Part shown: piece by piece, positions 5,166-58,887 of the stretch | How the letters are laid out: every line of letters starts with the position of its first letter | Position numbering within the stretch: the stretch's first letter is position 1 | Sequence record: MZ779063.1 | DNA length: 64,000 bases | Direction: 5' to 3' (one strand) | From: Staphylococcus phage vB_SauM-UFV_DC4 | The notes under the pieces: model-generated | Told to the model about the DNA's origin: nothing | The model's database searches: none | The model's input: the letters and a program-made list of their open reading frames with translations, nothing else | Translations under genes and position numbers: made by a program

Positions 5166-5174
5166 TTTAAATAT

Positions 5175-5288: not shown

Positions 5289-7010
5289 ATGGGTAGATTT
5301 ATTAAATCAACATATTTAAATAAAAAAGAGACACATTCAGGAAAAGAAAAAGTAGTAATGGTAGTTAAAGAAGAAGACGGTAATAAAAAACATATGGAAA
5401 TAACTGATCCAATGATGCATTATTATGTAACTAAAGATGAACATTGGTTACCACCTAATAAAATTGTAGGTTCTATTGAAAAAGATAAAGTAAGAACTGT
5501 TACTTGTAAGCATAAAGATATTATCAAATCAGTAGTTAAAGAAGCTGGTAATGCTCAAGATAAAGCAGAATATGATAGAATTATGAAATCAGGTAATTGG
5601 CAAGAATATAGAAAATTAAAAGATTTTCATTTATTAAATAATGCTCATGGATCTGATATTAATATAGAAGATTATAATATTAATGAGTATATTAAAAAGA
5701 ATTTAGATAGTAAAGTCGGTATAGATATATGTCTATTCGATATTGAGGTTGATGGTTCTCAAGTAACAGGCTTCCCAGATCCTGAAAAAGCTGAAGCAGA
5801 GATAAATATTATAACTGTAGTGGATTGGAGTAAGAAAAAAGTATTAACATTCGCTCTTAAATATGACACTGATACTTATAGAGAAACTATGAAAGATCAA
5901 GATAAGTTAATTAAAGACTTAAATGAAATCTATAATAATGAAAATAGTGAAATTGGTAAAGATTTAGGTTTAGAATTTGAAATATATGAATTAGATACAG
6001 AAATGCAAGTAATTAAATCTTTCTTATACTATATTAATGAAATTAGTAAACCTGATATATGTACAGCATGGAATCTAGATTATGACTTCCCTGCAATATT
6101 TGAACGTATTAGAGCTAATGGAGAAGATCCTGCAGATTATTTCTGTTCTAAAGAATTTGAAGATAAAAAAGCATATTATAAATTAGATAAAAATGCTACT
6201 GATATGGCTAATAGATCTTCTACATTTGAGACTAATTCTTATACTAACTGGATTGACCAATTAGCTTTATATGCAAATATTAATAAACCTAATGGTGCTT
6301 TGGAATCAGTTAAGTTAAATGATATTGGAGAAAAAGAAGCGAGAGTTACTAAAGATGTTTATGAAGGTTCTATCTCTGATTTACATTTTAGAGATTATTA
6401 CACATTTATACTTTATAATATTAAAGATACTGTATTAGCTGCATTAATTGAACATAACACTAATATGTTTGATTTATTATTCTCTATTGTAGATATGACT
6501 AGAACAAGACCTAGTAAAGCACTTAAGAAAACTATTTGTTTAAGAAATCGTAGTTCAGTATTCTTTGAAAATCAAGGATATGTATTAAGTAATAACCACT
6601 CAAAATTATTATCAGATCCGAATGCAGATAAAATTCGTGGTGGATTTGTAGCAGATATGATGTTAATTGAACGTAATGGTGATACATTAGTTAAAGGTAG
6701 AGATATTAGATCTAATAGATTATTTAGTAATGTTTGTGACTTTGACTTGAGTGCTCTATACCCATCTATTATTAGAGCATATAATATAACACCTGAAGGA
6801 CATGTGGGTAAAATGAATATTCTTGATAAAGATAGAATAACAGTGCCTAAGTATGAGGAAGATAAAGATAACTATGATTTTAATACTGAATTCGTAAGTA
6901 AGTTTAACAGTCAAGATAGTGTTGCTTTTGCTCAAGAATTTCATGGTTTACCTCCTCTTATTAAAGCATCTGATGACATTATTAAAGAATTAGAGGAGGA
7001 AATTGGTTAA
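5289..7010 (+). CDS. Family B DNA polymerase, N-terminal part (3'-5' exonuclease domain through polymerase motif A); the ORF stops shortly after motif A
   Basis: Exo I LFDIEVDG, Exo II TAWNLDYDFPAIFER, Exo III YNIKDTVLAALIEH, polymerase motif A DFDLSALYPSIIRAYNITPEG; no motif B (KxxxNSxYG) or motif C (YGDTDS) before the stop. Confidence 0.8.
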   Translation: MGRFIKSTYLNKKETHSGKEKVVMVVKEEDGNKKHMEITDPMMHYYVTKDEHWLPPNKIVGSIEKDKVRTVTCKHKDIIKSVVKEAGNAQDKAEYDRIMKSGNWQEYRKLKDFHLLNNAHGSDINIEDYNINEYIKKNLDSKVGIDICLFDIEVDGSQVTGFPDPEKAEAEINIITVVDWSKKKVLTFALKYDTDTYRETMKDQDKLIKDLNEIYNNENSEIGKDLGLEFEIYELDTEMQVIKSFLYYINEISKPDICTAWNLDYDFPAIFERIRANGEDPADYFCSKEFEDKKAYYKLDKNATDMANRSSTFETNSYTNWIDQLALYANINKPNGALESVKLNDIGEKEARVTKDVYEGSISDLHFRDYYTFILYNIKDTVLAALIEHNTNMFDLLFSIVDMTRTRPSKALKKTICLRNRSSVFFENQGYVLSNNHSKLLSDPNADKIRGGFVADMMLIERNGDTLVKGRDIRSNRLFSNVCDFDLSALYPSIIRAYNITPEGHVGKMNILDKDRITVPKYEEDKDNYDFNTEFVSKFNSQDSVAFAQEFHGLPPLIKASDDIIKELEEEIG

Positions 7011-10298: not shown

Positions 10299-10344
10299 TA
10301 TTGACATTTGAATAACGGATTAAATACAATTCGTTATTCAAATT

Positions 10345-10370
10345 TATATTATATAAGTGTAGTACAGAAT
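10345..10370 (+). promoter_or_regulatory. Promoter-like motif TATATTATATAAGTGTAGTAC upstream of the RNAP beta-prime fragment
   Basis: One of at least 8 copies of TATATTATA(N2-5)TG(A/T)(A/G) found 30-60 nt upstream of plus-strand starts. Confidence 0.45.
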
Positions 10371-10398: not shown

Positions 10399-12312
10399 AT
10401 GACAAATGAAGAAATTGTTTTAGATTTAAAATTAGGTAAGTATAATGATTATTTACACTCAGATAATTATTTTGAAATTTTAGAAGATTTAAAGAAAGAT
10501 ATTATTAGTAATCCTCAAAAAAGAATGGAAGACTATTTTGAAGACAATATATCTAAAAGTAATTATTTCACTTTATTAGTATTAGGTAAACCTTTTAGAG
10601 ATATGAATAAAGAGTTTACGGAAGAATACTTAGTTAATCCAACTGATATTGAAGATTATTATGATTATTTTGACAAAGTTGTTGTTAATTTTATTCATGA
10701 AGGACATGACCCAATAAAAGTTAGTCAATCTATTGCATTTATTATTGATGAATTAACTATATTTTCAAATGAATATATTTTACCTTTAGATGGACCATCT
10801 ATTTCATTATACGATATTATGAGATTGGCTAATGAAGATAAAGAAGTAGAAAAATTAATTAACTTTGATAAAGAAGATATTGACCCTAGCTTAAACTATC
10901 AGCAAATTATCAATGAAGTTCAAAAACCTAATATGCATAAATTAATTGATCGTATTAAATCTGATAAAGAAAATGATTATAAAACTTTCTTACATTCAGG
11001 AACAGGTATTAATAAGATACAATTGAATGAGGTTTTAAGTTTCGTAGGATACAAACCAGATATTCGTGGCGATGTTGTAACTGATATTATTGATACCTCA
11101 TTCATGCGTGGTTTAAAAGATACAACACAATTTGCTATTGATGCAGAATCTTCATTAAACGCATTAATGAACTCTAAGAATAAAGTACGTGAATCAGGAT
11201 ACTTAAACCGTAAAATTACTTTATTAACTTCAGATTTAAAATTATCAGAAAATGAAGATTGTGAAAGTAAACATTTTGTTTACGTTAATATGAATAGTCA
11301 AGATAAATTAGATAGATTTAATGATAGATTCTATTATGATGATACAGATCAAGAATTAAAATTAATTAATTCTAAAGAAGATAGTCATTTAATAGGACAG
11401 ATTGTTCCATTACGTTCTCCTATCACATGTGCTGAATCTAAAGGAAAAATATGCCAAACTTGTTACGGTAAACGTTTATATAACATTAATAGAAACTTAT
11501 CTGTAGGTATATTGGCTACATTAAGATTAACAGAACCTATGACTCAAAAATTATTATCAACAAAACACTTACAAGCAGTACAATTATCTGAATTCTCTTG
11601 GCCAGATATCTTTAAAGAACACTTTGAATTCTCTGGAGATAATATTGTTCCACGTAATGAAAAGACTAAAGTTATTATTGATGAAATGATTATTAATGAA
11701 GATTATGAATATGGAAGATATAAAGCTAACAGTTTTAAATTTAAAGTAGGTACTAAAACTCATACTGTTAAATCACCTGTAACTCTTAAAATACCAGATC
11801 AAAATATTGAGACTATGGATAAGTTTTATGATGAAGAAGAAAATGCATTTATATTCAGTATGAAAGACTTAAAAGAGAATTTCTTATTTAATATTAAAAT
11901 TAAAAATGAAGGTGTTGCTGACCCACTTCTTAAAATACGTTCTATATTAGAAAGTACTAAATACATTAGAAATGATTATGAAGAAAATAACTATCAAGCA
12001 ATGTTTAATGATGTAACAGATTTATTACTTAAATCAGGTACAGACGTTATGAGTGTTCATTTAGAAACTATTATTAGAAACATGGTATTCTTAAATGAAG
12101 ATTATAAAGAAAGAACTAAATATAGAGATCCTGAATTTGAACCTGATATTGAATTGAAAAATGTAGGTAGTGCTATTTTAAGTTCACCTTCGCCAGTACA
12201 ATCATTAATCTTTGAGAAGATTAAAGCACAATTAAGTACTGATGAAACTAATAACTTCTTCAGTAAAGATGGAGACTCAATGTTCGATCCGTTATTTGAT
12301 TTTGATATTTAA
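10399..12312 (+). CDS. Multisubunit RNA polymerase beta-prime subunit, C-terminal module (bridge helix to trigger loop and beyond), fragment 1
   Basis: Bridge-helix-like FMRGLKDTT...SGYLNRKITLLTSDL (compare bacterial [23 protein letters not shown]). Trigger-loop region RSPITCAESKGKICQTCYGKRL...NLSVGILATLRLTEPMTQKLLSTKHLQAV (compare RSPLTCE..GVCAKCYGRDLA.G...[25 protein letters not shown]). Confidence 0.75.
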   Translation: MTNEEIVLDLKLGKYNDYLHSDNYFEILEDLKKDIISNPQKRMEDYFEDNISKSNYFTLLVLGKPFRDMNKEFTEEYLVNPTDIEDYYDYFDKVVVNFIHEGHDPIKVSQSIAFIIDELTIFSNEYILPLDGPSISLYDIMRLANEDKEVEKLINFDKEDIDPSLNYQQIINEVQKPNMHKLIDRIKSDKENDYKTFLHSGTGINKIQLNEVLSFVGYKPDIRGDVVTDIIDTSFMRGLKDTTQFAIDAESSLNALMNSKNKVRESGYLNRKITLLTSDLKLSENEDCESKHFVYVNMNSQDKLDRFNDRFYYDDTDQELKLINSKEDSHLIGQIVPLRSPITCAESKGKICQTCYGKRLYNINRNLSVGILATLRLTEPMTQKLLSTKHLQAVQLSEFSWPDIFKEHFEFSGDNIVPRNEKTKVIIDEMIINEDYEYGRYKANSFKFKVGTKTHTVKSPVTLKIPDQNIETMDKFYDEEENAFIFSMKDLKENFLFNIKIKNEGVADPLLKIRSILESTKYIRNDYEENNYQAMFNDVTDLLLKSGTDVMSVHLETIIRNMVFLNEDYKERTKYRDPEFEPDIELKNVGSAILSSPSPVQSLIFEKIKAQLSTDETNNFFSKDGDSMFDPLFDFDI

Positions 12313-16731: not shown

Positions 16732-16740
16732 ATTTTTAAA

Positions 16741-16765
16741 TATATATTATAAAGATGTATTAGTA
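16741..16765 (+). promoter_or_regulatory. Promoter-like motif TATATATTATAAAGATGTATTAGTA
   Basis: Copy of the TATATTATA family upstream of ORF 16802. Confidence 0.4.
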
Positions 16766-29220: not shown

Positions 29221-29730
29221 TTAAAGACCAAATTCTTTATCTAAAGATTCTTCTAAAGAACTAATATCTTCATTAGTTTGTTCTTCTTCTTTAACAGCTT
29301 CAAATAAGCTAAATAAAGCTTCTTCAACAGGACTTACAACTGAATCAATTTTATTTTCCATAGCTTCATTTAATTTAGTAGGTAATTTTTTGAATAGAGC
29401 GATGTATTTCTTTTCATTATTTCTAGCCCAGGCTTCTGCTTTTTTAGGACTTTGGAAAGCACATACTCGAATAAAACGATTTAAAATAGATGTTTTACCT
29501 TTAGCATCAATTACTCTGTAAGTAAATATAACTGTTCCATCTTCATGAGCATCTAAAGCAAATTCATTTTCATCAAATTTTTTACCTTTAGCGATAACTT
29601 TAGCTTTCTTTTTAGTAGCACGTGCTATGAATTTTTCCTCTGTATCTTTATCAGAAGGGTTTACCATTTTTCTTAATGTATCCTTCACATTAGCTTCATT
29701 TAATAATGTTTCTTGTAAAAAATCTTCCAT
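29221..29730 (-). CDS. Hypothetical protein, paralog of ORF 29772..30332 (C-terminus ends in SLEESLDKEFGL)
   Basis: Shared blocks AEAWARNNEKKYIALFKKLPTK and KEAQKWVQSNGNKFVSIFKKAPDK. Confidence 0.55.
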   Translation of the reverse strand: MEDFLQETLLNEANVKDTLRKMVNPSDKDTEEKFIARATKKKAKVIAKGKKFDENEFALDAHEDGTVIFTYRVIDAKGKTSILNRFIRVCAFQSPKKAEAWARNNEKKYIALFKKLPTKLNEAMENKIDSVVSPVEEALFSLFEAVKEEEQTNEDISSLEESLDKEFGL

Positions 29731-29771: not shown

Positions 29772-30332
29772 TTAGTTTAATTTAAATTCCTCATCTAATA
29801 TTTTTTCTAAATTTTCAATAACTTTATCATCTTCATCAATTTCAGGTTTCTTATCAGGAGCTTTCTTGAAGATAGATACAAATTTATTTCCATTACTTTG
29901 AACCCATTTTTGTGCTTCTTTGAAACGATCTGCAACTATTCCAATAGGTATTCTTCGAATTTTATCTTTACCTTTATATTTAACAGGTACTTCTAAAGCA
30001 GCGTTTTTACCACCAGTACGTTTGGCCACTACTACAATATTGCTTGAATCAATTCTAATACCATTACTTTTAGCTTTTATTTTAAAATTCATACAAGCTT
30101 TAGCAAAATCCGCTTCAAGCGTATCAGGTTCAACAATTCCTTCTTGAACTGCAATATCCGAAGTATTACCGCAATCTTCACATACTAATTGACCTGATTC
30201 ATTTGGAGACATTTTAGAACCACATTCTTCACAAATAGGCTCTTCTTTATCAGTATCAATATCACGATTTAATTCTTCATTAACTAAACCAAATTCTTTA
30301 TCTAAAGATTCTTCTAAAGATTTAAAATCCAT
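29772..30332 (-). CDS. Zinc-ribbon protein, paralog of ORF 29221..29730 (N-terminus begins MDFKSLEESLDKEFGL)
   Basis: CEECGSKMSPNESGQLVCEDCGN has the same C-x2-C-x13-C-x2-C pattern as the 641-aa acidic protein. Confidence 0.55.
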   Translation of the reverse strand: MDFKSLEESLDKEFGLVNEELNRDIDTDKEEPICEECGSKMSPNESGQLVCEDCGNTSDIAVQEGIVEPDTLEADFAKACMNFKIKAKSNGIRIDSSNIVVVAKRTGGKNAALEVPVKYKGKDKIRRIPIGIVADRFKEAQKWVQSNGNKFVSIFKKAPDKKPEIDEDDKVIENLEKILDEEFKLN

Positions 30333-30428: not shown

Positions 30429-33400
30429 TTATAGCATATCTTTTACTTTACGTTTTAATTCTATTAAAGCTTTATTAGTTGCCAACATTAAATAAATATC
30501 AGTAGTCATACGAGATACGATACTTAATGGAGAGAATATAGCTTCGATTTCTTCGTCAGGTCTATATTCTGCATAAGGAGATTCATTAGGAGGAGTAACA
30601 TCAGCAATAACTGTTTTACATGCTCCATAGAAACTAATCTTATCACCGATACTCATATCATCTTCATATTCTGTGAAAATTTCAATAAGTACTCCATCCA
30701 CTTTTTCACCTTTAATTTTCTCACTATTAATTTTCTCTACAGCTGGAATATCTACATCTAAACCAGGTAATGTAGATTTATTATCTTTAACTGCATTTTT
30801 GTATTCTCTATATTTACTCTTAGATTTATTAATATAACCATTAACTAATTTAGCTAATGTAGGAGACATATTTTCAATATCATCATTATAATAGATATTT
30901 ACTTTTTTAATTTCTCCAGTATATTTAGATCTAACAGCTCTATTAGAAATATCTTGTATTTCTTGTTCAAATTCAGAACCGATTTTATCTAATAAAGAAC
31001 CAATACCTTCATCATCAAATGAATTCTCAAATATCATTAATGGATCTCCTGTACGTACATTTTGACCTTCCTTAACAATATATTGAATATTTGTATTAGA
31101 AGCTAAATTAACTGTTTTCTTCATAGTAACTTTAGTTGACATTGCTTCAGACATACTGTTAGAAATAATAGAACTATCTTCGTACGTGCCATAGCTTGAA
31201 GCAACTGCAACTTTAGATAATTTACCAGCAGCAAATTGAATATCATTATTACTGCCAGATCCTGCAAAGTAACTATCATTTTTAGCCAATACTTGTCCTT
31301 TATTAAATTTCTTACCTACTTCAAATTGTGGGGTAAGTTTATTATTTTGATAGAAACCGCCATTAGAGTTTTTAGCAAGTTTTTCAGATATATCAATTAC
31401 ATCTTTATCCCCATTAATGTATTCAACAAGCATTAATCCTGTTTTCTCATTGATAGAAGTTACTTTCCCATCTTCTTTAGCTTTAAATGCAAAAGTATCT
31501 GAAATTTGATACGCTAAAGATTTATCTACACCAGATCCAACTAATGGACGATCATTTGTTTTAGTAGCGATTAAATGCTTAGCCTGAGTTCCTGTCATTC
31601 CTATACGAGGTGAATCTGCATGTCTACTAGTATATGGGTTTAATAATTCTAATGGAGTGTATAAAGCTGTATCACTTACATCTTTCTTACTACCATCAGT
31701 ATATCCACGAGTAGATTTAATCTGTGTATCATATGAAAGTTGTCTAACTATACCTACCTTATTACTGTCAGGTGTGCTTATTCCTAATATACCTTGCATA
31801 CTTTCGTCATAAGAACGAATATCAGGTTCATATGATTGTTCAGAGTTACGTCCAGCAGGACCTTTAAACGTAACAGAAGTCATCTTATCTATTTCTAAGT
31901 TAGGGTTTAAATCAGATACTTCATCTACTGTAGGTTGTTCCATAATAGTTTTAATTAATTGATCTTGTTTAACTGAAATATTCTTAGGATTTTTATTATT
32001 ATAAGAATCTGAATACTCTTTATAAGCATTTGCCATCATTTTATACAATAATGCGTTAATTTGCTCTGGTCCACGTACACGATAAATTCCCATATCATTA
32101 TGATCTCTAGCTGAAACGTCTTCTAACATTGTATTAGCTAATAGTAATAATTCAACCATATTATCAGGAAGTTTTAAATCTCTTAATACTTCTTTAGTAA
32201 TAGGATCCATTGCTAAATCCATAGTATTTTTAATACCTTTACCAACATTACGACTGTAGAATTTATCATTGAAATATTCTAAGTAAGGTGTTTCAGTTTC
32301 AAAATCACTGAAATTGTATTGTGAAGTAGGTAATACAGTTAATCCAGACATTAATAAATCAAATCTTAATTTATCAGTAGAGTATATTAAATAACCGTCT
32401 TGGAATTTAATCTTATTCTTTTTATCATGAATGCTAATTCTTTCATTCTCAGTAGTAAATTTATAATCAACTTCATAAAGATCAAGAATATTAGTTAAAC
32501 CTTTATAGAAACCTAATAATAGAATTGTAGGTACTAATTTATTAGTAATTTTAACACGTGAAAATGCCATCGTCTTATTAGATTGAATATTCTTACTGAA
32601 TTTCTTATCAACGACTCCAAAGTCAACTTCATTGTCTAGTTTATCAATAATGTAATCAAATATATTTACTTCCATAGATTTAATATTAGATTTACTACAT
32701 TCATACATAACAGATTCTGTTTTGTCTGCTAATATTAATTTAGATTTATTAATATTATAACCAATAGGGAAATATTTATCTTGATCATAATCAATCTTAG
32801 ATAAACTAGCGCTATCGGAAATCATTCCTAATAAACTTCTTTGGTTGAATTCAAGTACATTAGTACCATCTTGGAAATTTAATATATTTCTAGATAAACT
32901 ATTATAAATAACTGAAGTTACGTATTTATTATTAATTAAAGAAGCATTACCTTTTTTAACAGATAGGTTAGATTTATTTTCAATATAATCTATAACTTGG
33001 TCATCTTCAATAACTTTCTTAATCCATTCAGTTTCAGCATTTTCTTTATAACCGAATTTTTCTATAATGAATTTATTATAGTTAGTTGTAATCCAAACAG
33101 TATCAGGTTTATATTTAACGATTGGCCACATCATTAACTGTTTAGTTAATACTTTTTTACCGCCATTAAGTTTCATATATTTACCGTCAATAACTTTAGG
33201 AACATCAAATTTAACATTATGAGTTAAACCATCTGGACTTCTAAATTGGACTTTAACTGTATTTTTTAATGACTGACTATCTGAATTATCTTCAATATTC
33301 ATTTTATTAATAAATACTGGAATATCTTCATTGTCATTAAAGCTTTTCATTATATCAATAAAGTCTTTATTAAATGTTTTTTGCATATAAGAAATATCAA

Positions 33401-34682
33401 AATCATTAGAAGCAATATTGTTAATAGTCTCTTCATTGATATTATTAATATTTTCATTAATTTCTCTATCGATTAATTTATCTTCAGAAAAACTAAAATC
33501 TTCTAAATCATTAAGGTATTCATCTTGTTTCTTAGATAAAGCTAATATCTTTTTAGTATTTTTAAGAGCTTCATCACCAATGCTAGATTTATTTTTAATA
33601 TTTCTTTTAATTGATTTAAATGAATCATTCTTGTCTAATACATCTGAATATAAAGTTTCTGTATCAATGTCAATTAAATCTTTATTATCATTTAATTCTT
33701 TTTCAATTATCATAGCTATATTATATTCATCATCAACATCCATTTCAGTATTGTCTAATGATCTAATATAACTTATTGTAGAATCTATTTTATTAGATAT
33801 TTTTTCTAACTGTTCATCATTTTCATATTCAACTTCATCATTCTGAGCTTCGATAGGATCAATTGTTCCTACATTATCAAATGCTTTCTTTTTAATTACT
33901 CCATCTACAGCTTCAGTATTATCATCATCTTCAACTTTACTAATTTCATCAGTATCCAATGCTTGTGTATTAGTGTCAATGATTCTTCTTAATCTTTGTC
34001 TAAGTCTCATATTAAGTTTATTATAATCTTTGTAATCAAATTTAAACATTATTCCATTATCTAGAGAGACAAATAATAAATTAACATTTTGATTTTCACC
34101 ATGAGGTAATTCCTCTTGATTCTTAATCATCATGAATAAGCTTGACATGAAATCTTTTGTATTAGGTCTAATAGCTTGTTGAGAAGGTTTATTATACCCA
34201 TCAACATTAATCACATAAAGTAAATTATTGTAATCTTCTGTATTATTTAAAGAGTTAAAAGTTGATTTAATTGAATTTAATACTGTATTAAAGTTTTTAG
34301 TCATTAATGATTTATCTTCTAAATCAATAAATTTAGTTGAATCAACAATATAGTTTCTACCTTTAAATAATTTCTCATTTCTTTCAACTCTATACTGTTT
34401 ATAAGATTTAGATTTAATTTCTTTTTGATAATCTGTTATATTCGTTAATAATCTAGTTCTTCTATTTTGAGTTCTATACAATCTTGGTGTATAGATATTC
34501 TTGAAATTCTGATGATATAATAATCCACTATTTAAGAAATCAGTAAATGAATTTTCTTTAAAACCTTTATAAATAACTAACTGGTCTTTTTTCTTATCTT
34601 TGATTTCTTCATCAATAGCTTTAATTTTATATCCAGATATTGAATAGAATTTAAGATTTTTTAATCTATTAAGATATTTCAA
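30429..34682 (-). CDS. Multisubunit RNA polymerase beta subunit, large N-terminal/central fragment. It ends about 20 aa after the PSRM-region equivalent and lacks the C-terminal GGQRFGEME block
   Basis: Alignable blocks: [55 protein letters not shown] vs bacterial [90 protein letters not shown] vs [50 protein letters not shown] vs [71 protein letters not shown] vs [45 protein letters not shown]. Confidence 0.75.
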   Translation of the reverse strand: [1417 protein letters not shown]

Positions 34683-34909
34683 TTATGCCATTCCTTTCCG
34701 TATTTAATTTTATTGATTAATATATTTATATTACTTTTATTTTATAATATTATTCAATAAATTTCCTATATACAATAGTTTTGATTACTATCATTATGTA
34801 TTTTAATTGGATTTATAAAAATAAAATAACGAACTATGTGAGTTATTTTTAAATACATTTTTATGAAATAAAAATGTGTACTATCCCCTCATAATATTTT
34901 AATTTATAT

Positions 34910-34935
34910 AAATATACTATAAGAATAGTATATTT
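34910..34935. promoter_or_regulatory. Perfect palindrome AAATATACTAT-aaga-ATAGTATATTT in the divergent intergenic region between the RNAP beta (minus) and beta-prime fragment 2 (plus) genes
   Basis: 11-bp inverted repeat arms with a 4-nt spacer, read directly. Confidence 0.5.
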
Positions 34936-35142
34936 ATTATTATAATATTTTATTATAATATAATTATAATATTCCGGACACTTTCAAATTTTTTATCACA
35001 TAATGGTACAAATTTATAATTTTTTAAATAATTAATATAAAAATATTTATTAACTTCATGCATATTGTTTAATTATATAAAAATTATAAAATACTCAGTA
35101 ACATCTAAATATCAATAAAATAATGAAAGAAGTGAAAATAAA

Positions 35143-36369
35143 TTGGCTAATATGAATTATGAAAATAAAACACTTAATGAAAAAGAAGTATCGACATTAT
35201 TAAGTGTTGGTAAAGATGACATTACATTAGACAAGTTAAAAGAATTATTTGCTTTTAGACAAAATACAGAACCAATGTATAATCCAACGGATAAATTTAC
35301 ATTAAAGAAAGATTTAGTCTATAATAAAAAAGATGAAAAAACTACTGTAGGTAGATATATATTTAATAAATTTATTTTAGATAATAAAATTGGACCGATT
35401 ATAGGCTATATGAATCGTGATATGGGCGGTTCTGGAGTAGGTAAACTTCAATCTGATTTATCAAATTTATTACTTAATGATATTATTACTACACAAGAAA
35501 TGTCAAATTATATCGATAAATTACAATGGTTAGGTTTCTCTATAGCCAGTTTTATTAATTCTAGTCTAACTACTACAATGATGACTGCTACTGAAAAAGT
35601 TAAACAGAAAAAAGAAGAGTTATTAGTTAAATATGAAAAAGCATTGAATACTCCTGGAGAGGAATTAAATGCAATATCAGTTATTGAAAAAGAATTAATT
35701 AATTTAAGTAAAGAAGAATTAAAAGGATTGGCTGATTTAGATATTTATGATAGTGGCTCACGTGGTTCATTCGGTAATAACTATAAATTAACTGCATTAA
35801 TTCGTGGAGCAAATAAAAACTTTGCTGATCCAAGTAAAATTAGAATTGCTAAAAGCTCACTAGCTGAAGGAATTGATCCTAATGAACTTTATATGTTTGG
35901 AGATATTATGACTGCAGGTTCAGCTGGACGTGCACTAGGTACTCAAGAAGGAGGGTATCAGGCTAAGCAGCTGATGTCGGCTTTCCAAACGACTGTTTTA
36001 GATAAAAAAGGTTCTGACTGTAGAACAAATCATTTCCTTAAATTAATATTAGATAAATCAAACGCATCATTAATGATGTATAGATATTTTAAAGATAATA
36101 ACGCAAGATCAGGTCAATTAGTTTTATTAACTCCTGAAAATGTAGATGATTACATGGGTAGAGTTTTAGAATTTAGAAGTCCTATGTATTGTGCAAGTGA
36201 AGATATTTGTAGTAAATGTGCAGGAGAATTACCATATAAATTAGGAATTGAAAATATTGGTCTATTAGTTAACCAAGTTGCTCAAGCAATCGTAACAAGT
36301 TCAATGAAATCTTTCCATGATATGACGATTAAACAAAATGAAATAGATATAGAAAGTTATATAGAATAA
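35143..36369 (+). CDS. Multisubunit RNA polymerase beta-prime C-terminal module, fragment 2 (paralog of 10399..12312); the ORF ends about 18 aa after the trigger-loop first helix
   Basis: Bridge-helix-like GDIMTAGSAGRALGTQEGGYQAKQLMSAFQ; trigger-loop region FRSPMYCASEDICSKCAGELPYKLGIENIGLLVNQVAQAIVTSSMKSFHD. Confidence 0.7.
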   Translation: MANMNYENKTLNEKEVSTLLSVGKDDITLDKLKELFAFRQNTEPMYNPTDKFTLKKDLVYNKKDEKTTVGRYIFNKFILDNKIGPIIGYMNRDMGGSGVGKLQSDLSNLLLNDIITTQEMSNYIDKLQWLGFSIASFINSSLTTTMMTATEKVKQKKEELLVKYEKALNTPGEELNAISVIEKELINLSKEELKGLADLDIYDSGSRGSFGNNYKLTALIRGANKNFADPSKIRIAKSSLAEGIDPNELYMFGDIMTAGSAGRALGTQEGGYQAKQLMSAFQTTVLDKKGSDCRTNHFLKLILDKSNASLMMYRYFKDNNARSGQLVLLTPENVDDYMGRVLEFRSPMYCASEDICSKCAGELPYKLGIENIGLLVNQVAQAIVTSSMKSFHDMTIKQNEIDIESYIE

Positions 36370-36437
36370 CATAGATAGGATAACAATCATTAAATTGATT
36401 GTTATCCTTATTTTATTGGATTAAATCATTCTTTAAA

Positions 36438-36470
36438 TTTATATTATAATTATGAGGTGAATGATGTGTA
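36438..36470 (+). promoter_or_regulatory. Promoter-like motif TTTATATTATAATTATGAGGTGAATG
   Basis: TATATTATA family copy upstream of the endonuclease gene 36508. Confidence 0.4.
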
Positions 36471-36507: not shown

Positions 36508-38601
36508 ATGGAGATGAAATGGATAATGTTAGGTAAAGAAATAATGAGAAGATCTGAAATAATTTACGATGATACAGATATAAAAACTGTTTTAAATTTA
36601 GATCCGGATAAAGATTACATAAATGAAGAAGAGGATATCGAATATATCTGTCCTAAACATGGTAAACAAAAAAGAAAAATAAAACAACATTTAGAAAAGA
36701 AAGGTTGTTTCGAGTGTCAATACGATAATAAGTCTAAAAAGACTAAAGGTAAAGATTTATTAGAAGAGTTTTACAAAAGATTTGGAGAAGATGTTTTTGA
36801 TTATCCAGATATAGAAGAAGATCGTGTATATTCATCTAGAGAAGAAATAAAGATAGTTTGTTTTAAACATGGAGAATTCACTAGACAAATTAGAGAACAT
36901 AATACAAAAGCTAAAATATGTGATAAATGTAAATTAGAGGATGGAGGAAAAGATTTTAAAAAGAAACAATTTGAAGAAAGATTGAGAAATGAAAATTATG
37001 AAATGTATAAGATTACCGATTTTTCTGAGACTGTATTTGAAGGGTTAACTAATTTTATGTATGTTAGATGTAAAAAACATGATACGATTAACAAAATACA
37101 ACCTAGATCATTACTAAGTAAGAATAGTAATGGGTGTTCAAAATGTAGAAGTGAAAAACTATTAAAAAGTAGAAGATCTAATAACAAGGTATATAACGTG
37201 GAAGATATTTTTAACATATATAAACAAAAAGGAAATCTTTTAAATACTGCGACTAAATATCTTGAAAATTTAAATCTCGAACAAAGAAAAGAGTTATTCT
37301 TAATGATATCCAAACATAATTTTGGAAATAAGTATGACTATTCTTTAATAGAAAAAGAAAAAAATAATTTTAAATCTAGAGATAAAGTAACACTAATATG
37401 TAAAGAACATAATGTCGAATTTAAACAAAATATATCACACCACTATAAAGGTAGGTTAGGTTGTGATAAATGTAAAAAGGATAATGTGTCTAAAAGTATA
37501 TCTGACTCATACAGATTTTCTAAAAGAACAGATATAAAACCTGAAGAATTAATAAAAGAAGTAGATAATGAAAATTTCAAAGATAATGAGATAAGAAAAA
37601 TAGTGAGATTAATGAATTTTGAAGATAAAGGAAAATATTACAGATTATTAGGGAAAAAGATTAAGGGAGATAAATATAACTATGATAAATTAGTGTATAA
37701 CGGTGATAGTGTTCAGGTAACTATAACATGTAAAAAACATGGAGATTTTAAACAGGTAATATACGATCACTTTTTCCAAGATCATAATTGTAATAAATGT
37801 TCAAAGATCGTATCCAAACAAGAACTTAAATTAAGTAATGATTTGGAAAAATATTTTACAGTTAAAAATTCTTTAAGAAGAATATTTGAGGATAAAAGAA
37901 AAGAAATTGATATATTTATCAAAGATATTAATTTAGGTATAGAGATAAATGGTCTAAGATGGCATTCAAATGATATAAAAAAGGAGGATGAAAATAATTT
38001 TGCAAGATACCATCAATTTAGTAAAATGAATGAATCTGAATGTTTAGGTATAAAATTATTAAACTTCTATGACGATGAAATAAATATAAAGAAAAATGAA
38101 ATTTCTTATTCTAAAATAATGAAAGAAATTTTATTATTTAATAATTCCTTTAATATTAAAAATATAGATTTAAAAGATTTAGAGATGAAAAAGATATCTT
38201 ATAATTTCATAAAGAAATTTTATAAGAAACATTCACTAGAATTCTTTAATGAAGAAGATAAAAATTATAGAGGAATATTCTATAAAGGTTATATAGTTTC
38301 CGTATTCTCATTTAATAATAAGAACGAATGTCATAACTATAGCACGAATTACAATTTAAATGAAGATATTGATTTAATATTAGATGCTTACCCTAATACC
38401 ATTTTTAATCTTAGATCAGATTCTTATAATAGATATAAATTTCAAGATTATGGGTTCATTACAATAAATAAAACTCTACCGCAATATAGAAATTTCAATA
38501 AAAAAGGTTTAACTAAAAATAGATATAAAAGATTAGAAAAGAGAGATAATAATAATCCTAATAGAATTTATGATTGTGGTAGAACTATCATGATTTACTA
38601 A
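36508..38601 (+). CDS. Putative homing-type endonuclease: five tandem KHG zinc-ribbon repeats, a Vsr/DUF559-like PD-(D/E)xK nuclease core and a conserved C-terminal domain (paralog 1 of 3)
   Basis: Repeats CxKHGxFxxxIxxHxxxxxxCxxC x5; nuclease core IEINGLRWHSNDIKKEDENNFARYHQFSKMNESECLGIKLLNFYDDEI; C-terminus ...NRIYDCGRTIMIY shared with ORFs 38912 and 40962. Confidence 0.6.
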   Translation: MEMKWIMLGKEIMRRSEIIYDDTDIKTVLNLDPDKDYINEEEDIEYICPKHGKQKRKIKQHLEKKGCFECQYDNKSKKTKGKDLLEEFYKRFGEDVFDYPDIEEDRVYSSREEIKIVCFKHGEFTRQIREHNTKAKICDKCKLEDGGKDFKKKQFEERLRNENYEMYKITDFSETVFEGLTNFMYVRCKKHDTINKIQPRSLLSKNSNGCSKCRSEKLLKSRRSNNKVYNVEDIFNIYKQKGNLLNTATKYLENLNLEQRKELFLMISKHNFGNKYDYSLIEKEKNNFKSRDKVTLICKEHNVEFKQNISHHYKGRLGCDKCKKDNVSKSISDSYRFSKRTDIKPEELIKEVDNENFKDNEIRKIVRLMNFEDKGKYYRLLGKKIKGDKYNYDKLVYNGDSVQVTITCKKHGDFKQVIYDHFFQDHNCNKCSKIVSKQELKLSNDLEKYFTVKNSLRRIFEDKRKEIDIFIKDINLGIEINGLRWHSNDIKKEDENNFARYHQFSKMNESECLGIKLLNFYDDEINIKKNEISYSKIMKEILLFNNSFNIKNIDLKDLEMKKISYNFIKKFYKKHSLEFFNEEDKNYRGIFYKGYIVSVFSFNNKNECHNYSTNYNLNEDIDLILDAYPNTIFNLRSDSYNRYKFQDYGFITINKTLPQYRNFNKKGLTKNRYKRLEKRDNNNPNRIYDCGRTIMIY

Positions 38602-38911: not shown

Positions 38912-40363
38912 ATGTTGGGTAAAAAATTATTAACTGTTTTTGGAGAGATCTATGATGAAGGATTATTCACATATCCTAACTTAGATTTAAATAAAAATTA
39001 TACAACTAAAGAATATATAGATATAAAATGTTATAAACATGGAATTTTCTCTAGAACTATAAATTCTCATAAAAAGAAAAGAAAATGCAGAAAATGTTCT
39101 AATGAAGAAAATAAATGGGATAACAATAAATATCTATCTGAATTATTTAAGAAAAATAAAGAATTTAAAGATTTATATAAATATGATAAGTTAAATTATC
39201 AAGGCTATCATAAAAAAATAAAAATATATTGCAATAAGCATGGATATTTTGAACAGATAGCAAATAACCATTTAAATGGAATGGGATGTAATGAATGCAG
39301 TATAGATAAACATAGAAATAAAAAATCAAATAAGAAAAAATATACTGTAGATGAATTATTAAATGATGAGAACTTGAATACTCAACAAAAATCAAATATT
39401 GTTAGATGTCATTTTAATAATAAAGATAAAAATGAGTACTATATAAAAAAATCTAAGATGGTTCATGGTAATAAATATATTTACGATAAGTTCAATTACA
39501 TTAATAAAAAGAATAAAGTAAAAATATATTGCCATAAGCATGGATATTTTGAACAAAGAATAGAAGAACATATTAATAAGAAAATGGGTTGTCCTTCTTG
39601 TGGAATGATTGTTTCTAAAAATGAAGAAATGTTAAATAATGATTTAAAGCATTTTAATTTCAATATTATTAGAAATGATAGAAAGATTTTAGATAAAAAA
39701 GAAATCGATATACTTATTCCAGAAGAGAAAATTGCAATAGAAATTAATGGTAATTATTGGCATTCAAATTTGGTTATGGATGAATTAAAAGCTAAAAGAC
39801 ATTTATATAAAAAATTTAAAATGTCTAAGGTTAAAGATTATCATTTAATAAATTTTTATGAAGATGACTTCATTTATAAATATAATTTAATTTTAAAAGA
39901 AATATTTTTACTAACAGATAAACTAAAATTATATAATTTTAAAAAAGATTATTTAAAGATTGAATCTTTAGATAATCAAAAATTTATAGATTTTTATAAT
40001 AATAATTCTTTATATAATATTAATAATAATTATAGATCAGCTTATGCTATAAAATATAAAGAATTTATAATAGGTGCATTTTCTTTAAATGAAGATAATG
40101 TATGTTATAATTATTGTATTAATTATAATAATAATGAAGATTTAAGTTTAATTAAAGAATTATTTCCTAATATAGTATTTAAAGTAAAGATTGACTCTTT
40201 TAATAGTTATAAATTTTTAAATAATGAATTACTAATTATAAATTATGAAAGTCCTAAATTTTATAATTTTCAATTAACTGGAAAAGACAGATTAAAAAGA
40301 AAAATTATAAATAATAGTGATAACAGAATATATGATTGTGGAAGTTATAGTTTTATATTTTAA
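38912..40363 (+). CDS. Putative homing-type endonuclease, paralog 2 of 3 (three KHG zinc-ribbon repeats plus a Vsr/DUF559-like core)
   Basis: CYKHGIFSRTINSHKKKRKCRKCS, CNKHGYFEQIANNHLNGMGCNECS, CHKHGYFEQRIEEHINKKMGCPSCG; nuclease core IAIEINGNYWHSNLVMDELKAKRHLYKK; C-terminus NRIYDCGSYSFIF. Confidence 0.6.
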   Translation: MLGKKLLTVFGEIYDEGLFTYPNLDLNKNYTTKEYIDIKCYKHGIFSRTINSHKKKRKCRKCSNEENKWDNNKYLSELFKKNKEFKDLYKYDKLNYQGYHKKIKIYCNKHGYFEQIANNHLNGMGCNECSIDKHRNKKSNKKKYTVDELLNDENLNTQQKSNIVRCHFNNKDKNEYYIKKSKMVHGNKYIYDKFNYINKKNKVKIYCHKHGYFEQRIEEHINKKMGCPSCGMIVSKNEEMLNNDLKHFNFNIIRNDRKILDKKEIDILIPEEKIAIEINGNYWHSNLVMDELKAKRHLYKKFKMSKVKDYHLINFYEDDFIYKYNLILKEIFLLTDKLKLYNFKKDYLKIESLDNQKFIDFYNNNSLYNINNNYRSAYAIKYKEFIIGAFSLNEDNVCYNYCINYNNNEDLSLIKELFPNIVFKVKIDSFNSYKFLNNELLIINYESPKFYNFQLTGKDRLKRKIINNSDNRIYDCGSYSFIF

Positions 40364-40880: not shown

Positions 40881-40896
40881 TTATACATAGTTTTAA

Positions 40897-40925
40897 ATAT
40901 ATATTATAAAAATGAGATATAATTG
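40897..40925 (+). promoter_or_regulatory. Promoter-like motif ATATATATTATAAAAATGAGATAT
   Basis: TATATTATA family copy upstream of ORF 40962. Confidence 0.4.
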
Positions 40926-40961: not shown

Positions 40962-42914
40962 ATGATAGGTTCAAAGATTAGAAAATCATTAAATGAAAAA
41001 TTTGGTTATCATTATAAGTTTTTATTAGAAGATTTTAAGAAAGATTATGATTTAAATAATGATACAATTATGGTAACTAAAGAAGCTAGTGACATCACAA
41101 AAGAATATAAAATAAAATCATTAAAGTATACTAAAGACATTGAAAAATTAGACAAAGACTTTAAGAAAGAGGAAGAAGAATTAAATATTAGAAAATCTAG
41201 AATTTTTAATTTAGATGAATTAGGTTTAGATGAAGACCTTAGAAACATCTGTAAGTATATAGACAGCACTACTAAATTAAAAGTAAAAGTTAGAGAGTAT
41301 AAAAAAGAAAGTAAAGAAAATATTGAATTCTTTTACAAAAATTTTGCTAATTTTACTTATAATAGTGTAATATATGATATGAGTCATTTTAAACCATCAA
41401 CAATTAGATCTAATCAGAAAGTTATATGTAGAAAACATGGACCTTTCTTTACTACTCCAGTAGATTTCTTTATAAAGAAAAAAGGTTGTCCAGTTTGTGA
41501 AAAAGAAACAGATGAAGAAAAGAAAGACACTAGTTGGAAGGATGAATTCATAGAAAATAATAATAAAAAAATATATCAAGAAGTAAAAGAAGAGAAAGAA
41601 AAAGAAAATAAAAAAGCTAAAAAAGAAAAGGTAGATATAAATAAGGAAAATAAAAAACTTTTAGATGAAGTCTTAAATCCACCTGAATTAGGATATTATA
41701 GAGAACCAGATAAAATACCTAATTCCAAAAAAGAAAATGAGAGATTCTTAAAGAATATTAAAGAAATAGATAATAATAAAGTTGAAGAATCTAAAGAAGT
41801 TGAAAAACCAAAGGAAATTGTTAAACCTAAATTAAATAAAAAGACAGTTGATCAAATAATAGCAGATAATAATACTAATCTGAGTAGAAAGATTAAATAT
41901 ATAAATAAAAATATTTATACAGAAAATGAAAGACAAGATTTCTATAAAAAATTAACTGACCGCAAACATGGTAAAAATAAATATAAAATTGATGAATTTA
42001 GACCTAAGACAATTAAAGAAAAACAAGAAGTAATTTGTCTTAAGCATGGACCTTTTAAAATAACAGCTGAAGAATTATTAATTAAAGGTAACCAGTGTCC
42101 TAAATGTTCTTCTAATAGAACTTCCATAACAGAAACTTTTGTAAGAGAATATATTCAGAGTTTAGATTTTGAAGTTAATAATTACGAGATAGAAGATTTA
42201 ATCAAACCTTATGGTGTTGATATAATTATCGAAAATTTAAAATTAGCTATTGAAGTTCAAGGTATCAAATATCATTCATCTGAAACAAGATCAGAAGCTT
42301 CAAATAAATACCATCAATTAAGAAAATTAAAAATGCTAGAAAATAAAGGTTATCATTTATTGAATATATATGATGATGAAATTCCTAATAAAAATAAAGG
42401 AATTGGTTGGGATAAATTTGGTAGATTTTTATCTGAATTAATGATGTTTGATAAAAGATTTGATATTGAAGAAATGGATACGAATTCAATAAAAATAGAT
42501 ACAATTAGTTATTACAAATTCAGAGAATTCTTTGAAAATTCTAGACAAGAATTTGTTACTGGAGATACAGAATATAAAGGAGTGGTTTATAAGAATAAAT
42601 TAATTTCAGTATTTTCTTATAATAAAGAAACAAGAGAATGTCATAACTACCATACTATGACAAATAATAAATTTGATTTAGAATTAATTTACAGAAAATA
42701 CAAAGATTTAAAATTTATAGTTAAAAGAGATTCTTATGTAGCGTATAAAATGAAAGGGCATGATATGTTACCGATAGCAGAAACAGAACCTGGTTTCTGT
42801 AACTTTTCAAAGATTGATGGAGATAGAAAAAATAACTATATAAGACAAAAAAGAAAGAATGAAAATGATAAAAACAAAGTTTATGACTGCGGAAATATAA
42901 TTTTTGTATTTTAA
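40962..42914 (+). CDS. Putative homing-type endonuclease, paralog 3 of 3 (two KHG zinc-ribbon repeats separated by a Lys/Glu-rich spacer, Vsr/DUF559-like core, conserved C-terminus)
   Basis: CRKHGPFFTTPVDFFIKKKGCPVCE, CLKHGPFKITAEELLIKGNQCPKCS; nuclease core LAIEVQGIKYHSSETRSEASNKYHQLRKLKMLENKGYHLLNIYDDEI; C-terminus NKVYDCGNIIFVF. Confidence 0.6.
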   Translation: MIGSKIRKSLNEKFGYHYKFLLEDFKKDYDLNNDTIMVTKEASDITKEYKIKSLKYTKDIEKLDKDFKKEEEELNIRKSRIFNLDELGLDEDLRNICKYIDSTTKLKVKVREYKKESKENIEFFYKNFANFTYNSVIYDMSHFKPSTIRSNQKVICRKHGPFFTTPVDFFIKKKGCPVCEKETDEEKKDTSWKDEFIENNNKKIYQEVKEEKEKENKKAKKEKVDINKENKKLLDEVLNPPELGYYREPDKIPNSKKENERFLKNIKEIDNNKVEESKEVEKPKEIVKPKLNKKTVDQIIADNNTNLSRKIKYINKNIYTENERQDFYKKLTDRKHGKNKYKIDEFRPKTIKEKQEVICLKHGPFKITAEELLIKGNQCPKCSSNRTSITETFVREYIQSLDFEVNNYEIEDLIKPYGVDIIIENLKLAIEVQGIKYHSSETRSEASNKYHQLRKLKMLENKGYHLLNIYDDEIPNKNKGIGWDKFGRFLSELMMFDKRFDIEEMDTNSIKIDTISYYKFREFFENSRQEFVTGDTEYKGVVYKNKLISVFSYNKETRECHNYHTMTNNKFDLELIYRKYKDLKFIVKRDSYVAYKMKGHDMLPIAETEPGFCNFSKIDGDRKNNYIRQKRKNENDKNKVYDCGNIIFVF

Positions 42915-43651: not shown

Positions 43652-43750
43652 AGATTTAATACCTTCTTTCTAATTTTCTTTTATCTATATTAGTATAATT
43701 AAATGTTATGAATATTTTTTAGTCTTTATGCGTTTCATGTAAATTTTTAA

Positions 43751-43775
43751 ATATATATTATAAAAGTGAAGTACT
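43751..43775 (+). promoter_or_regulatory. Promoter-like motif ATATATATTATAAAAGTGAAGTAC
   Basis: TATATTATA family copy upstream of ORF 43826. Confidence 0.4.
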
Positions 43776-55722: not shown

Positions 55723-55730
55723 TTTATTAA

Positions 55731-55762
55731 ATATATATTATATAAATGATAAATAATACTTA
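55731..55762 (+). promoter_or_regulatory. Promoter-like motif AAATATATATTATATAAATGATAAATAATAC
   Basis: TATATTATA family copy upstream of ORF 55799. Confidence 0.4.
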
Positions 55763-55798: not shown

Positions 55799-57532
55799 TT
55801 GGATAAAGTTAAAGAATTAGAGTACAAAGAGGATTTAGATTTAAAAAAGATTGATGAATTAGTTAATAATGACGTGGAAGTACCCCTATTATCTAGTAAT
55901 GTCAATAAGCTTAAAAGAGTCTCTGGTAATTTTGAATTAACTAATGAATACATTAATTCTAAAGACTTAGATACACTTGAAAGAAAAAATAAAAATGGTA
56001 AAATTGAATTGGAGTACATACAGAGAACAGATATTCTACCATTAGTTAAATTTATTGAAAGTGAAAAGAATGATACTATATTTATAGATTTCAATAAAAT
56101 ATTAGAAACTGATAATCGTAAAGTACCTAAGGATGAAGAGTTTGATAATATATTTACTATTCAAATTAAACAAAGATCTTACAAGAGTATTTTAGATTAT
56201 ATTGTAAATGATATGAATTTTATAGTTAATGAGATTCCTCACATAATGATTAAAGGTGCTACTATATTAAGTAAGATAGCTAAATTAAGAGAGAATTATA
56301 AAGAAGAAGATTTCTTCAGAGATATTCAGAATATTATTGAAGATGAAGATTTAAGAAATGTTATTAGAAATATTGTTGATAATAACTATACAATTAATTT
56401 AGATCAAACTAATGCTGAAGCTATGTTACAAAGTAAGAAAGTTATTAAGAGAGATTTACAAGTAACTGACCAAGTAAATAAATCATTCTTATCTACAGCT
56501 GTAATGCAAAGATTTATTATTCCGTTTATTAGTCAATATTATGTAACTACTAATAAGTATCATTGTGAAAATTCTGATGCAGATAAAGAAAGAACTAAAA
56601 ATGGTTACTTTAAAGCATTTAATTATTGTATGTGTATTTCTTCATTCGATTATAATGTAAGTAATAATAATAAACTTTATAAAATTGTAGAACCTAAAGT
56701 AATCAAAACAAAATACAATGATAGAGTTATTTGGAGATTCTTAGATTTACGTTCAATTGACCCTGACACTGTTATTAATAAAATAATGGATAAAATCATT
56801 AGACAAATTGTATGTAAATTATTAGTAGATACTTCTGCAGTATCTTACTTTACGTCTGTTATTAAATTCTCAATCGATTATGAATTCCAGTACAAATATC
56901 CAATTAAGTTTAGATCAATACGTCTATCTACAGATGATGACGATGATGAAGATAGCTTCGATAAATTCCAAATGAATAACTTCCATAAAGTTAATGAACG
57001 TTTAGATTTAGCTAATAAAATCACTATTGATAGATTTATTAATGAACGTTTAGAAGAATTAAATATTAGTGATGATTACATTAATCGTTTATATGATAAA
57101 TTTGATTATATTAATGACTTACAATCTCATTTAATTAAAGTTTATTTTGCTGAATACTTTAACGTTAATACAAATGATAGAAAGAGCATTGTTTCATTAC
57201 TAGCTATTATGTCTAAAGAACTTATTGACAATAATATGGAAACTTTAGGAAAAATAGTGGCAAGTAAAGTTGTTTCAGGTACAAAAGCTAAAAATGTAGG
57301 TAAATTATCATTAGACGTAATTGCAGATAAATATTATATTGCTGCTTGGGATAAATATAGATTTATCAATGATATTACTGAAAAAGATAACTTTATCTTA
57401 CGTATAGCATTAGTAAATGGATATTCATTTAACTTCACTCCTGAAGATAAAGAAGAAGATGAAGAAGTTATTGCTGATATTGATAAGAAATACTTTATCT
57501 CTGAAGTATCACAATTTATTTCTCAATACTAA
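55799..57532 (+). CDS. Hypothetical protein (TTG start)
   Basis: 577-aa ORF, AAGGAGAG RBS. Confidence 0.5.
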   Translation: MDKVKELEYKEDLDLKKIDELVNNDVEVPLLSSNVNKLKRVSGNFELTNEYINSKDLDTLERKNKNGKIELEYIQRTDILPLVKFIESEKNDTIFIDFNKILETDNRKVPKDEEFDNIFTIQIKQRSYKSILDYIVNDMNFIVNEIPHIMIKGATILSKIAKLRENYKEEDFFRDIQNIIEDEDLRNVIRNIVDNNYTINLDQTNAEAMLQSKKVIKRDLQVTDQVNKSFLSTAVMQRFIIPFISQYYVTTNKYHCENSDADKERTKNGYFKAFNYCMCISSFDYNVSNNNKLYKIVEPKVIKTKYNDRVIWRFLDLRSIDPDTVINKIMDKIIRQIVCKLLVDTSAVSYFTSVIKFSIDYEFQYKYPIKFRSIRLSTDDDDDEDSFDKFQMNNFHKVNERLDLANKITIDRFINERLEELNISDDYINRLYDKFDYINDLQSHLIKVYFAEYFNVNTNDRKSIVSLLAIMSKELIDNNMETLGKIVASKVVSGTKAKNVGKLSLDVIADKYYIAAWDKYRFINDITEKDNFILRIALVNGYSFNFTPEDKEEDEEVIADIDKKYFISEVSQFISQY

Positions 57533-58781: not shown

Positions 58782-58887
58782 TGTTATAATATATAATTAT
58801 ATATTAATTCGTAATTTTATAAAAATTGATATTACCTAGTAACATTCACTTATAATAATAAGTATCGGGAAGTCGGTGAATTAAAAA

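Follow-up and report, generated by a model that had tools for sequence, protein, structure and literature searches.

The 64,000-nucleotide stretch of Staphylococcus phage vB_SauM-UFV_DC4 analysed here (record MZ779063.1; hereafter the window, about 25% G+C) contains a long minus-strand open reading frame (ORF) at 30429..34682, which raises the question of which RNA polymerase (RNAP) its product belongs to and why the protein stops where a bacterial β subunit continues. Our data make it highly probable that this ORF encodes the large N-terminal fragment (N-β) of the β-like subunit of a virion RNAP (vRNAP) of the kind carried by the jumbo phages AR9 and phiKZ. Its similarity to the bacterial β subunit, RpoB, is far beyond chance, and the interpretation reached from the raw sequence in a preliminary description is supported as accurate. 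That description treated the finding as new, which it is not: the gene is already described in the 2023 paper on the phage (hereafter DC4), where UFVDC4_00067 is listed as a DNA-directed RNA polymerase β subunit (PMC10638138), and it is annotated for MarsHill and Madawaska in GenBank. Descriptions of the split, of the partner genes and of the virion location of the product, as well as of the gene itself, had appeared earlier for DC4 (2023) and for the relatives AR9 (2016-2017), phiKZ and SPN3US. In the GenBank records of S6, PALS_2 and LY01, the ortholog is labelled "hypothetical protein."

The gene is complete. According to the ORF list and its translation, the frame runs unbroken from a TTG start at 34682 through 1417 codons to a TAA stop at 30429-30431, and the product is 100% identical to UFVDC4_00067, whose published coordinates, 62429-66682(-), equal those in the window plus 32000, an offset shared by the other listed genes. 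A Shine-Dalgarno-like AAAGGA can be read at 34692..34697(-), 9 nt 5' of the TTG, and the MarsHill annotation places a ribosome-binding site and start at the equivalent position. The TTG start is credible because the N-terminus is kept from residue 1 in relatives and in AR9 g189. N-β is 99.6% identical to the protein of S6, a close relative of vB_SauM-UFV_DC4, and 75-99% identical to those of eight other Staphylococcus jumbo phages. It matches PHROG 14872 and 3148, both titled "RNA polymerase beta subunit," at E=1e-196 and 1e-189.

The β-like fold and the N-terminal extension

All four RpoB-like blocks that had been aligned by eye in the preliminary description were located in the ORF, and their homology is confirmed by a family profile, by hhalign and by Foldseek. 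The first, FKGPAGRN (aa 939-946, 31845..31868(-)), is the equivalent of the GPGG fork motif and aligns with GPGGL. It is followed by a block equivalent to HDD...NMQRQAVP (aa 1021-1038, 31569..31622(-)) and by GTYEDSSII (aa 1165-1173, 31164..31190(-)), the equivalent of GYNFEDS. The last β-barrel motifs, equivalent to GDKxxxRHGNKG...PSRM, occupy aa 1344-1392 (30507..30653(-)) and comprise a GDK-type block (aa 1344-1357, 30612..30653(-)) and SPLSIVSRM (aa 1384-1392, 30507..30533(-)). Three glycines in these blocks (G941, G944 and G1346) are invariant, and D1023, R1026, E1168, D1169, K1348, K1356 and R1391, invariant in 18 diverse family members, align with the bacterial residues in hhalign. The first Asp of the near-universal β HDD is Ala in the Staphylococcus jumbo-phage clade (HAD; aa 1021-1023, 31614-31622(-)), while D1023, at its end, is one of the invariant residues.

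The strength of the sequence match depends on how much of the phage family is brought to bear. A single-sequence phmmer search of N-β against PDB sequences gave a marginal result (E about 1e-3), whereas a 12-sequence family profile matched bacterial RpoB chains, those of Thermus among them, at E=1.3e-20; in this match the fork, HDD-to-ED and GDK-PSRM blocks were collinear. The same family profile recovered cellular RpoB proteins with full Pfam domain sets among 5.8 billion proteins (best E=1.7e-19). With hhalign, an 18-sequence phage alignment matched six bacterial RpoB sequences over aa 863-1394 at a probability of 99.8% and E=4.8e-29. The profile-alignable part, running from the fork through the β double-psi β-barrel to PSRM (aa 863-1394, 30501..32096(-)), thus corresponds to positions 331-941 of 1182 in bacterial RpoB; the alignment begins at about aa 856-863.

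Structure prediction, one of the checks proposed in the preliminary description, extends this likeness towards the N-terminus. The segment aa 427-1417, as modelled by AlphaFold2 (pLDDT 80.5, pTM 0.69), was compared with the PDB by Foldseek, and the top 50 matches were all bacterial β chains (E 2e-29 to 1e-25, probability 1.00). The alignments with RpoB span 1100-1270 columns for the 991-aa query, with TM scores (query) of 0.45-0.56 and only 12-14% identity. By this model, residues ~427-1394 have the bacterial β fold, and they retain the residues lining the β side of the active centre. Conservation within the phage family sets in at aa ~427, and most 10-residue blocks of the model between aa 427 and 862 have pLDDT values of 80-94. 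Since aa 427-938 are confidently modelled and lie inside the structural alignment to β, they are taken to be the lobe and protrusion domains; of these, aa 427-862 (32097..33404(-)) are assigned as lobe/protrusion equivalents by fold, not by profile alignment. As sequence, aa 427-938 are too diverged for profile alignment to RpoB. The ~900 N-terminal residues that had been left without recognisable motifs thus fall into two parts: for aa 1-426 no recognisable fold emerged, while aa 427-938 correspond by model to the β lobe and protrusion, so that the unexplained region measures about 426 aa and had been overestimated.

The first 426 residues (33405..34682(-)) form an extension that is not present in cellular β. 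An extension was found in 146 of 149 family representatives among the matches listed, with a median length of 432 aa, and that of N-β can be matched to AR9 g189 from its first residue, at 32% identity over aa 1-946. Its own sequence was recognised by phmmer in 8 of 168 family proteins among the matches listed, and a word-indexed homolog search with the 426 aa alone returned only a fragment of itself. On this sequence evidence, the extension appears to be a vRNAP-specific region that is conserved in position and fast evolving. AlphaFold2 modelled aa 1-440 from a 10-sequence alignment with low confidence (pLDDT 54, pTM 0.39), suggesting an α/β region at aa ~30-240, an acidic disordered linker at aa 241-287 and a helical region at aa 288-393; aa 241-430 are 27% Asp plus Glu. 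No significant fold match was obtained with this model: small-GTPase-like matches of a generic α/β kind (best E=0.018, TM below 0.2) were rejected as meaningless.

What the extension does can be approached through its relatives. In the N-β ortholog of 201phi2-1, the first 275 residues are cut off by the prohead protease, while SPN3US gp241 is unprocessed. The extension might plausibly serve in capsid targeting, in ejection or in assembly. It is possible, though doubtful, that the extension is a dedicated vRNAP module, whether for capsid targeting or ejection (and then partly removable), as a substitute for the α platform, or as a σ-like substitute in promoter recognition. The DC4 locus makes the function of the extension and promoter recognition without σ no more testable than do the model phages.

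The split after PSRM and the separate C-terminal gene

The ORF ends soon after the SRM: the remaining 25 aa (30432..30506(-)) form a C-terminal helix, at residues 970-990 of the 991-aa model, and are followed by the stop. The preliminary description had placed the stop about 20 aa after the PSRM region, so that its position shortly after SRM holds and the distance needs correction to 25 aa. Bacterial RpoB runs about 240 residues further past PSRM, through the GGQRFGEME (Rpb2_7) region, and N-β does not; because this region is not in the same polypeptide, N-β is a fragment and not a complete β. Searched exhaustively with HMMER, 1.84 billion cluster representatives yielded 1176 relatives at E<=1e-30, and among the listed proteins whose alignment reaches the N-β C-terminus, 128 of 140 have their own end no more than 17 aa away. 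The split after PSRM is thus genuine and, in the sequences compared, family-wide, in keeping with the earlier proposal that the ORF stops before the GGQRFGEME region.

An apparent split could also arise if the ORF were an rpoB-like pseudogene, cut short or frameshifted, or had been misassembled, with its C-terminus lying nearby in another frame or beyond an intron. Relatives do have one to four intervening sequences in this gene, so an exon boundary could mimic a stop. However, tblastn with the AR9 gp078 exons and with the C-terminal β fragment (C-β) of Staphylococcus phage SA1 gave no match in the 64-kb window, whichever frame was read, which argues that the end of N-β is neither a frameshift nor a nearby exon and that the ORF end stands. 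The stop lies just 96 bp from the following ORF, which forms, with the one after it, an unrelated pair of small paralogs. The shared end in most listed representatives of a family of more than 1100 members, together with the uninterrupted 1417-aa ORF in S6, Madawaska and SA1, leaves this explanation with a practically negligible probability. A six-frame regular-expression search of the window for GGQRFGEME-like or NADFDGD-like motifs also returned nothing relevant; for the former, this is because the C-β motif is degenerate in the Staphylococcus jumbo-phage clade (GSDKVASVSNMEAS).

The intervening sequences themselves differ between alleles. DC4, S6, Madawaska and SA1 have none, while in PALS_2 (99.3% identical) and MarsHill an insertion of ~1.3 kb with a 310-aa ORF follows aa ~1029, and LY01 is interrupted four times, after aa ~528, 976, 1023 and 1165. 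The annotation of AR9 g189 joins six pieces, which implies five intervening sequences, one with an HNH endonuclease gene; four of the five were mapped to positions after aa ~946, 982, 1036 and 1110. The insertions in relatives cluster at catalytic motifs, and the HDD-equivalent block is a hotspot for homing endonucleases and introns. The insertion site that follows HAD/HDD has its homolog in the intron site of PhiPA3 gp210, which is used in phage-phage competition.

The preliminary description had also supposed that the C-terminal piece of β is a separate polypeptide encoded elsewhere, and this is borne out in relatives: a C-β gene was found in all nine Staphylococcus jumbo phages searched. 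The SA1 gene is intact, encodes 679 aa and lies directly after gyrA (229-2268 of the examined SA1 stretch); the last ~250 aa form its RNAP part. This part contains GSDKVASVSNMEASALKAIGA, the equivalent of GGQRFGEME; the stretch TGQLTGSDKVASVSNMEASALKAIGAQDILRELMGPRSD is the degenerate equivalent of GGQRFGEMEVWALEAYGA...KSDD, and SA1 C-β gives a weak match to Pfam Rpb2_7. In S6, C-β likewise follows gyrA (1684-5644 of the examined S6 stretch) and lies at about 189.9-193.9 kb, ~80 kb from N-β; there it breaks off after ...VGYLHVKRL at a homing-endonuclease insertion, whose product is an endonuclease-like protein of 449 aa with multiple zinc ribbons. Going by these sequences, the remaining ~250-residue β C-terminus, with the GGQRFGEME equivalent and the clamp/β'-binding region, would be made from a distant separate gene in DC4 as well, and the expectation is that DC4 C-β reads GQLT(G/S)SDKVASVSNMEASALKAIGAQD near its end.

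Assignment to the virion polymerase

The likeness to phiKZ- and AR9-type split RNAPs noted by eye is confirmed by an ortholog in AR9. By tblastn, N-β aligns with AR9 g189, annotated as "virion RNAP subunit, beta N-terminus," over aa 1-1413 at 32-54% identity. The AR9 vRNAP consists of gp189 and gp078 (β) with gp145, gp264 and gp125 (β'), all products of late genes (PMC5312081), and a vRNAP core comprises at least five polypeptides (2020 review). In SPN3US, the N-terminal (gp241, 159 kDa) and C-terminal (gp218, 25 kDa) β fragments are essential and are packaged as a complex. Liquid chromatography-mass spectrometry (LC-MS) of DC4 virions detected UFVDC4_00067 by one peptide, with 1.91% coverage (PMC10638138). 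The suggestion that the RNAP is packaged in the virion is therefore supported by the literature, by this peptide, and by the status of AR9 gp189 and SPN3US gp241 as virion subunits.

AR9-type phages also encode a second, non-virion RNAP (nvRNAP), and an ORF such as this might be a β fragment of that enzyme instead. The two sets are paralogous, parts of an nvRNAP are encoded in the window and genome, and the N-β family profile picks up the C-β chain of the AR9 nvRNAP as well (7s00_C, E=1.9e-13). Yet that chain, AR9 gp089, enters the alignment only at profile position ~1033, immediately ahead of the HDD block, and the 2020 review states that the split sites of the two enzymes differ. The best reciprocal relative of N-β is AR9 g189, an annotated virion subunit; the extension of ~430 aa and the size of about 160 kDa match SPN3US gp241; and the peptide came from DC4 virions (PMC10638138). 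Membership of the nvRNAP is exceedingly unlikely on this evidence.

As a vRNAP subunit, N-β would take part in a cycle that can be outlined by analogy. N-β, C-β and three β' fragments, including the one encoded by the adjacent gene (Mid-β'), would assemble late in infection without α or ω; indeed, phages of the phiKZ/AR9 type encode neither α nor ω (2020 review). The fragments would then enter the prohead as a complex and be ejected with the DNA, and the ejected vRNAP may transcribe early genes, including those for the nvRNAP, from AT-rich promoters. The nvRNAP would in turn transcribe late genes such as that of N-β. Split multisubunit virion RNAPs of this α-less kind free phiKZ/AR9-type jumbo phages from host transcription.

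Several points weigh against the assignment of N-β to a working vRNAP. Its presence in DC4 virions hangs on the single peptide. The 2020 review states that no vRNAP of the phiKZ/AR9 class had yet been purified, and no structure of such an enzyme came up in our searches, so we infer the subunit composition and activity given above. C-β was located in near-identical relatives, DC4's own region lying outside the window. The AR9 late (nvRNAP) promoter consensus, AACA-N6-TA (PMC5312081), has no match in the 460 bp upstream of N-β on the minus strand, where the nearest late-like motif is a one-mismatch AACT-N6-TA at about 34769-34780. Cellular β differs from N-β at several positions close to the catalytic lysines and in having HDD where N-β has HAD. 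Finally, a Pfam scan of N-β gave a sole match to RNA_pol_Rpb2_3 (E=0.28; 11.8 bits against a cutoff of 21) and none to Rpb2_6, and an NCBIfam scan returned nothing relevant above threshold. We attribute the Pfam and NCBIfam failures to the divergence of the sequence, not to a lack of homology. The profile check suggested in the preliminary description accordingly had a mixed outcome, falling below threshold with Pfam and succeeding with the family profile and hhalign. That curated Pfam and NCBIfam models miss N-β is one reason why identifying such fragments matters for annotation.

Some of the same features could mean that the ORF encodes an RpoB-derived structural or ejection protein of the virion that has lost polymerase function: the sequence is strongly diverged and below Pfam thresholds, the RHGN positions beside the catalytic lysines are substituted, HDD has become HAD, and the large extension is not part of a polymerase. 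Against this, none of the residues with which cellular β contacts NTP and RNA varies among the 18 diverse members compared. Early transcription in AR9 and phiKZ needs neither new protein synthesis nor host RNAP (PMC5312081; 2020 review) and thus requires an injected polymerase, and SPN3US mutants in vRNAP β are non-viable. Loss of polymerase function is therefore very unlikely, and we retain the reading of N-β as the N-terminal β fragment of a vRNAP.

Neighbouring genes, promoter motifs and known systems

The divergent neighbour of N-β, UFVDC4_00068 (35143..36369(+), 408 aa), encodes vRNAP Mid-β'. It matches PHROG 2962 (E=1.5e-75), NCBIfam rpoC at positions 545-868 of 1147 (E=2e-10) and, by phmmer, β' chains in the PDB (E=1.7e-4), and the MarsHill equivalent is annotated as "viral RNA polymerase beta-prime subunit." The protein spans the bridge helix (GGYQAKQLMSAFQ) to the first trigger-loop helix (...MKSFHD), i.e., the first half of the trigger loop. 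This gene is not the missing β piece, being a Mid-β' fragment by its motifs and by its PHROG, NCBIfam and PDB matches. Beside it lie three consecutive plus-strand ORFs of 697, 483 and 650 aa (36508..38601, 38912..40363 and 40962..42914) that match HNH/Hef-like homing-endonuclease PHROGs; two of the three have early-promoter motifs 5' of them. The first, ORF 69 (36508-38601), was apparently counted among the RNAP β subunits in the DC4 paper (PMC10638138), and its PHROG matches do not support this.

Downstream of N-β, the minus strand encodes, besides the pair of small paralogs, a head-tail joining-like virion protein, a tail fibre/hydrolase, an amidase and an endolysin, in agreement with the structural and lysis neighbours noted in the preliminary description. 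The small ORFs, of 169 aa (29221..29730(-)) and 186 aa (29772..30332(-)), are related to each other by BLASTP (E=1e-6), and the latter has a CxxC...CxxC zinc ribbon. The two have a terminal peptide in common: SLEESLDKEFGL is found at the C-terminal end of the 169-aa protein and again at the N-terminal end of the 186-aa protein, and the 186-aa protein ends in NLEKILDEEFKLN. The published label "Sigma70 factor" belongs to UFVDC4_00065, which we take by locus-tag counting to be the 169-aa ORF; no similarity to σ was found for it in Pfam, NCBIfam or PDB sequences.

Two genes of the second polymerase set lie further away in the window. A C-terminal fragment of nvRNAP β' is encoded at 10399..12312(+) (Pfam Rpb1_5, E=9e-10; PHROG 3015), and a homolog of AR9 gp226, the promoter-specificity subunit of the nvRNAP, at 55799..57532(+) (PDB 7s01_A, E=3e-40). 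The gp226-like protein is longer than its AR9 counterpart (577 versus 464 aa), with about 110 extra residues at the N-terminus.

The promoter motifs in the window fit a cascade from one polymerase to the other. The early (vRNAP) promoter consensus of AR9 is AAATATATATTAT (PMC5312081), and the extended motif AAATWTATATTAT-N5-TG occurs six times in the window, compared with 0.00 expected in shuffles. The six sites (10340-10359, 16738-16757, 36435-36454, 40895-40914, 43749-43768 and 55729-55748, all on the plus strand) are on the coding strand, each starting 59-77 nt 5' of a plus-strand ORF. Two of them precede the nvRNAP genes at 10399 (β' C) and 55799 (gp226-like), consistent with transcription of nvRNAP genes by the vRNAP. 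One-mismatch versions with the same N5-TG spacing occur at 58786-58798(-) and, within the N-β ORF, at 30888-30900(-).

Late motifs have a different distribution. AACA-N6-T(A/G) occurs 14 times in the 120 nt upstream of window ORFs (3.9 expected) and marks the structural/lysis cluster and Mid-β'. It lies within about 45-60 nt 5' of the ORFs starting at 30332(-), 29085(-), 23274(-) and 22158(-), and upstream of Mid-β' the late-consensus match AACATCTAAATA (35100..35111(+)) starts 43 nt and ends 31 nt before the start codon. A scan of the window for σ70-type promoters was uninformative, with 56 sites found and 63.6 expected. In the middle of the 460-bp intergenic region between N-β and Mid-β' is a perfect 13-nt inverted repeat, or hairpin (ATAAATATACTAT aaga ATAGTATATTTAT; 34908-34937), and a repeat search of this divergent region otherwise gave only AT-rich low-complexity matches.

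Among known systems, the closest is AR9 gp189, with its homologs in PBS1 and vB_BpuM-BpSp. It is a full-length ortholog of N-β that includes the extension, reaches 48-54% identity over the catalytic part, ends after PSRM and has its partner C-β (gp078) encoded elsewhere; the early-promoter consensus, too, is common to AR9 and the DC4 window. The systems differ in minor respects, in that g189 is interrupted by intervening sequences while DC4 N-β is not, in HAD in place of HDD, and in the architecture of C-β: that of AR9 and other Bacillus phages has an N-terminal HD phosphohydrolase domain, whereas the Staphylococcus-phage proteins have an N-terminal region of ~430 aa that starts with a CxxC...CxxC motif and gives no match to that domain.

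The N-terminal β fragments of the Chimalliviridae (phiKZ gp178, PhiPA3 gp211/209, SPN3US gp241 and that of 201phi2-1) resemble N-β in architecture, in size (about 1400-1450 aa) and in the split, and they are virion-packaged, essential components of a five-polypeptide vRNAP. They are more distant, however, with about 25% identity over aa 432-1413 and extensions that cannot be aligned, and these phages, unlike the Staphylococcus phage, infect Gram-negative hosts and form a nucleus-like compartment. Bacterial RpoB shares with aa 427-1394 of N-β both the fold and the order of the fork, HDD, ED and GDK...PSRM motifs; N-β differs in lacking the last ~240 residues and in having ~426 extra residues at its N-terminus. 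The nvRNAP β proteins of AR9 (gp105/gp089; PDB 7S00/7S01) and phiKZ are paralogous and, like N-β, split. Their split precedes the HDD block, whereas that of N-β follows PSRM, and they have no long N-terminal extension. In addition, the nvRNAP β fragments are not packaged in virions and work with a fifth subunit of the gp226 type, the homolog of which is encoded at 55799-57532 in the same window as N-β.

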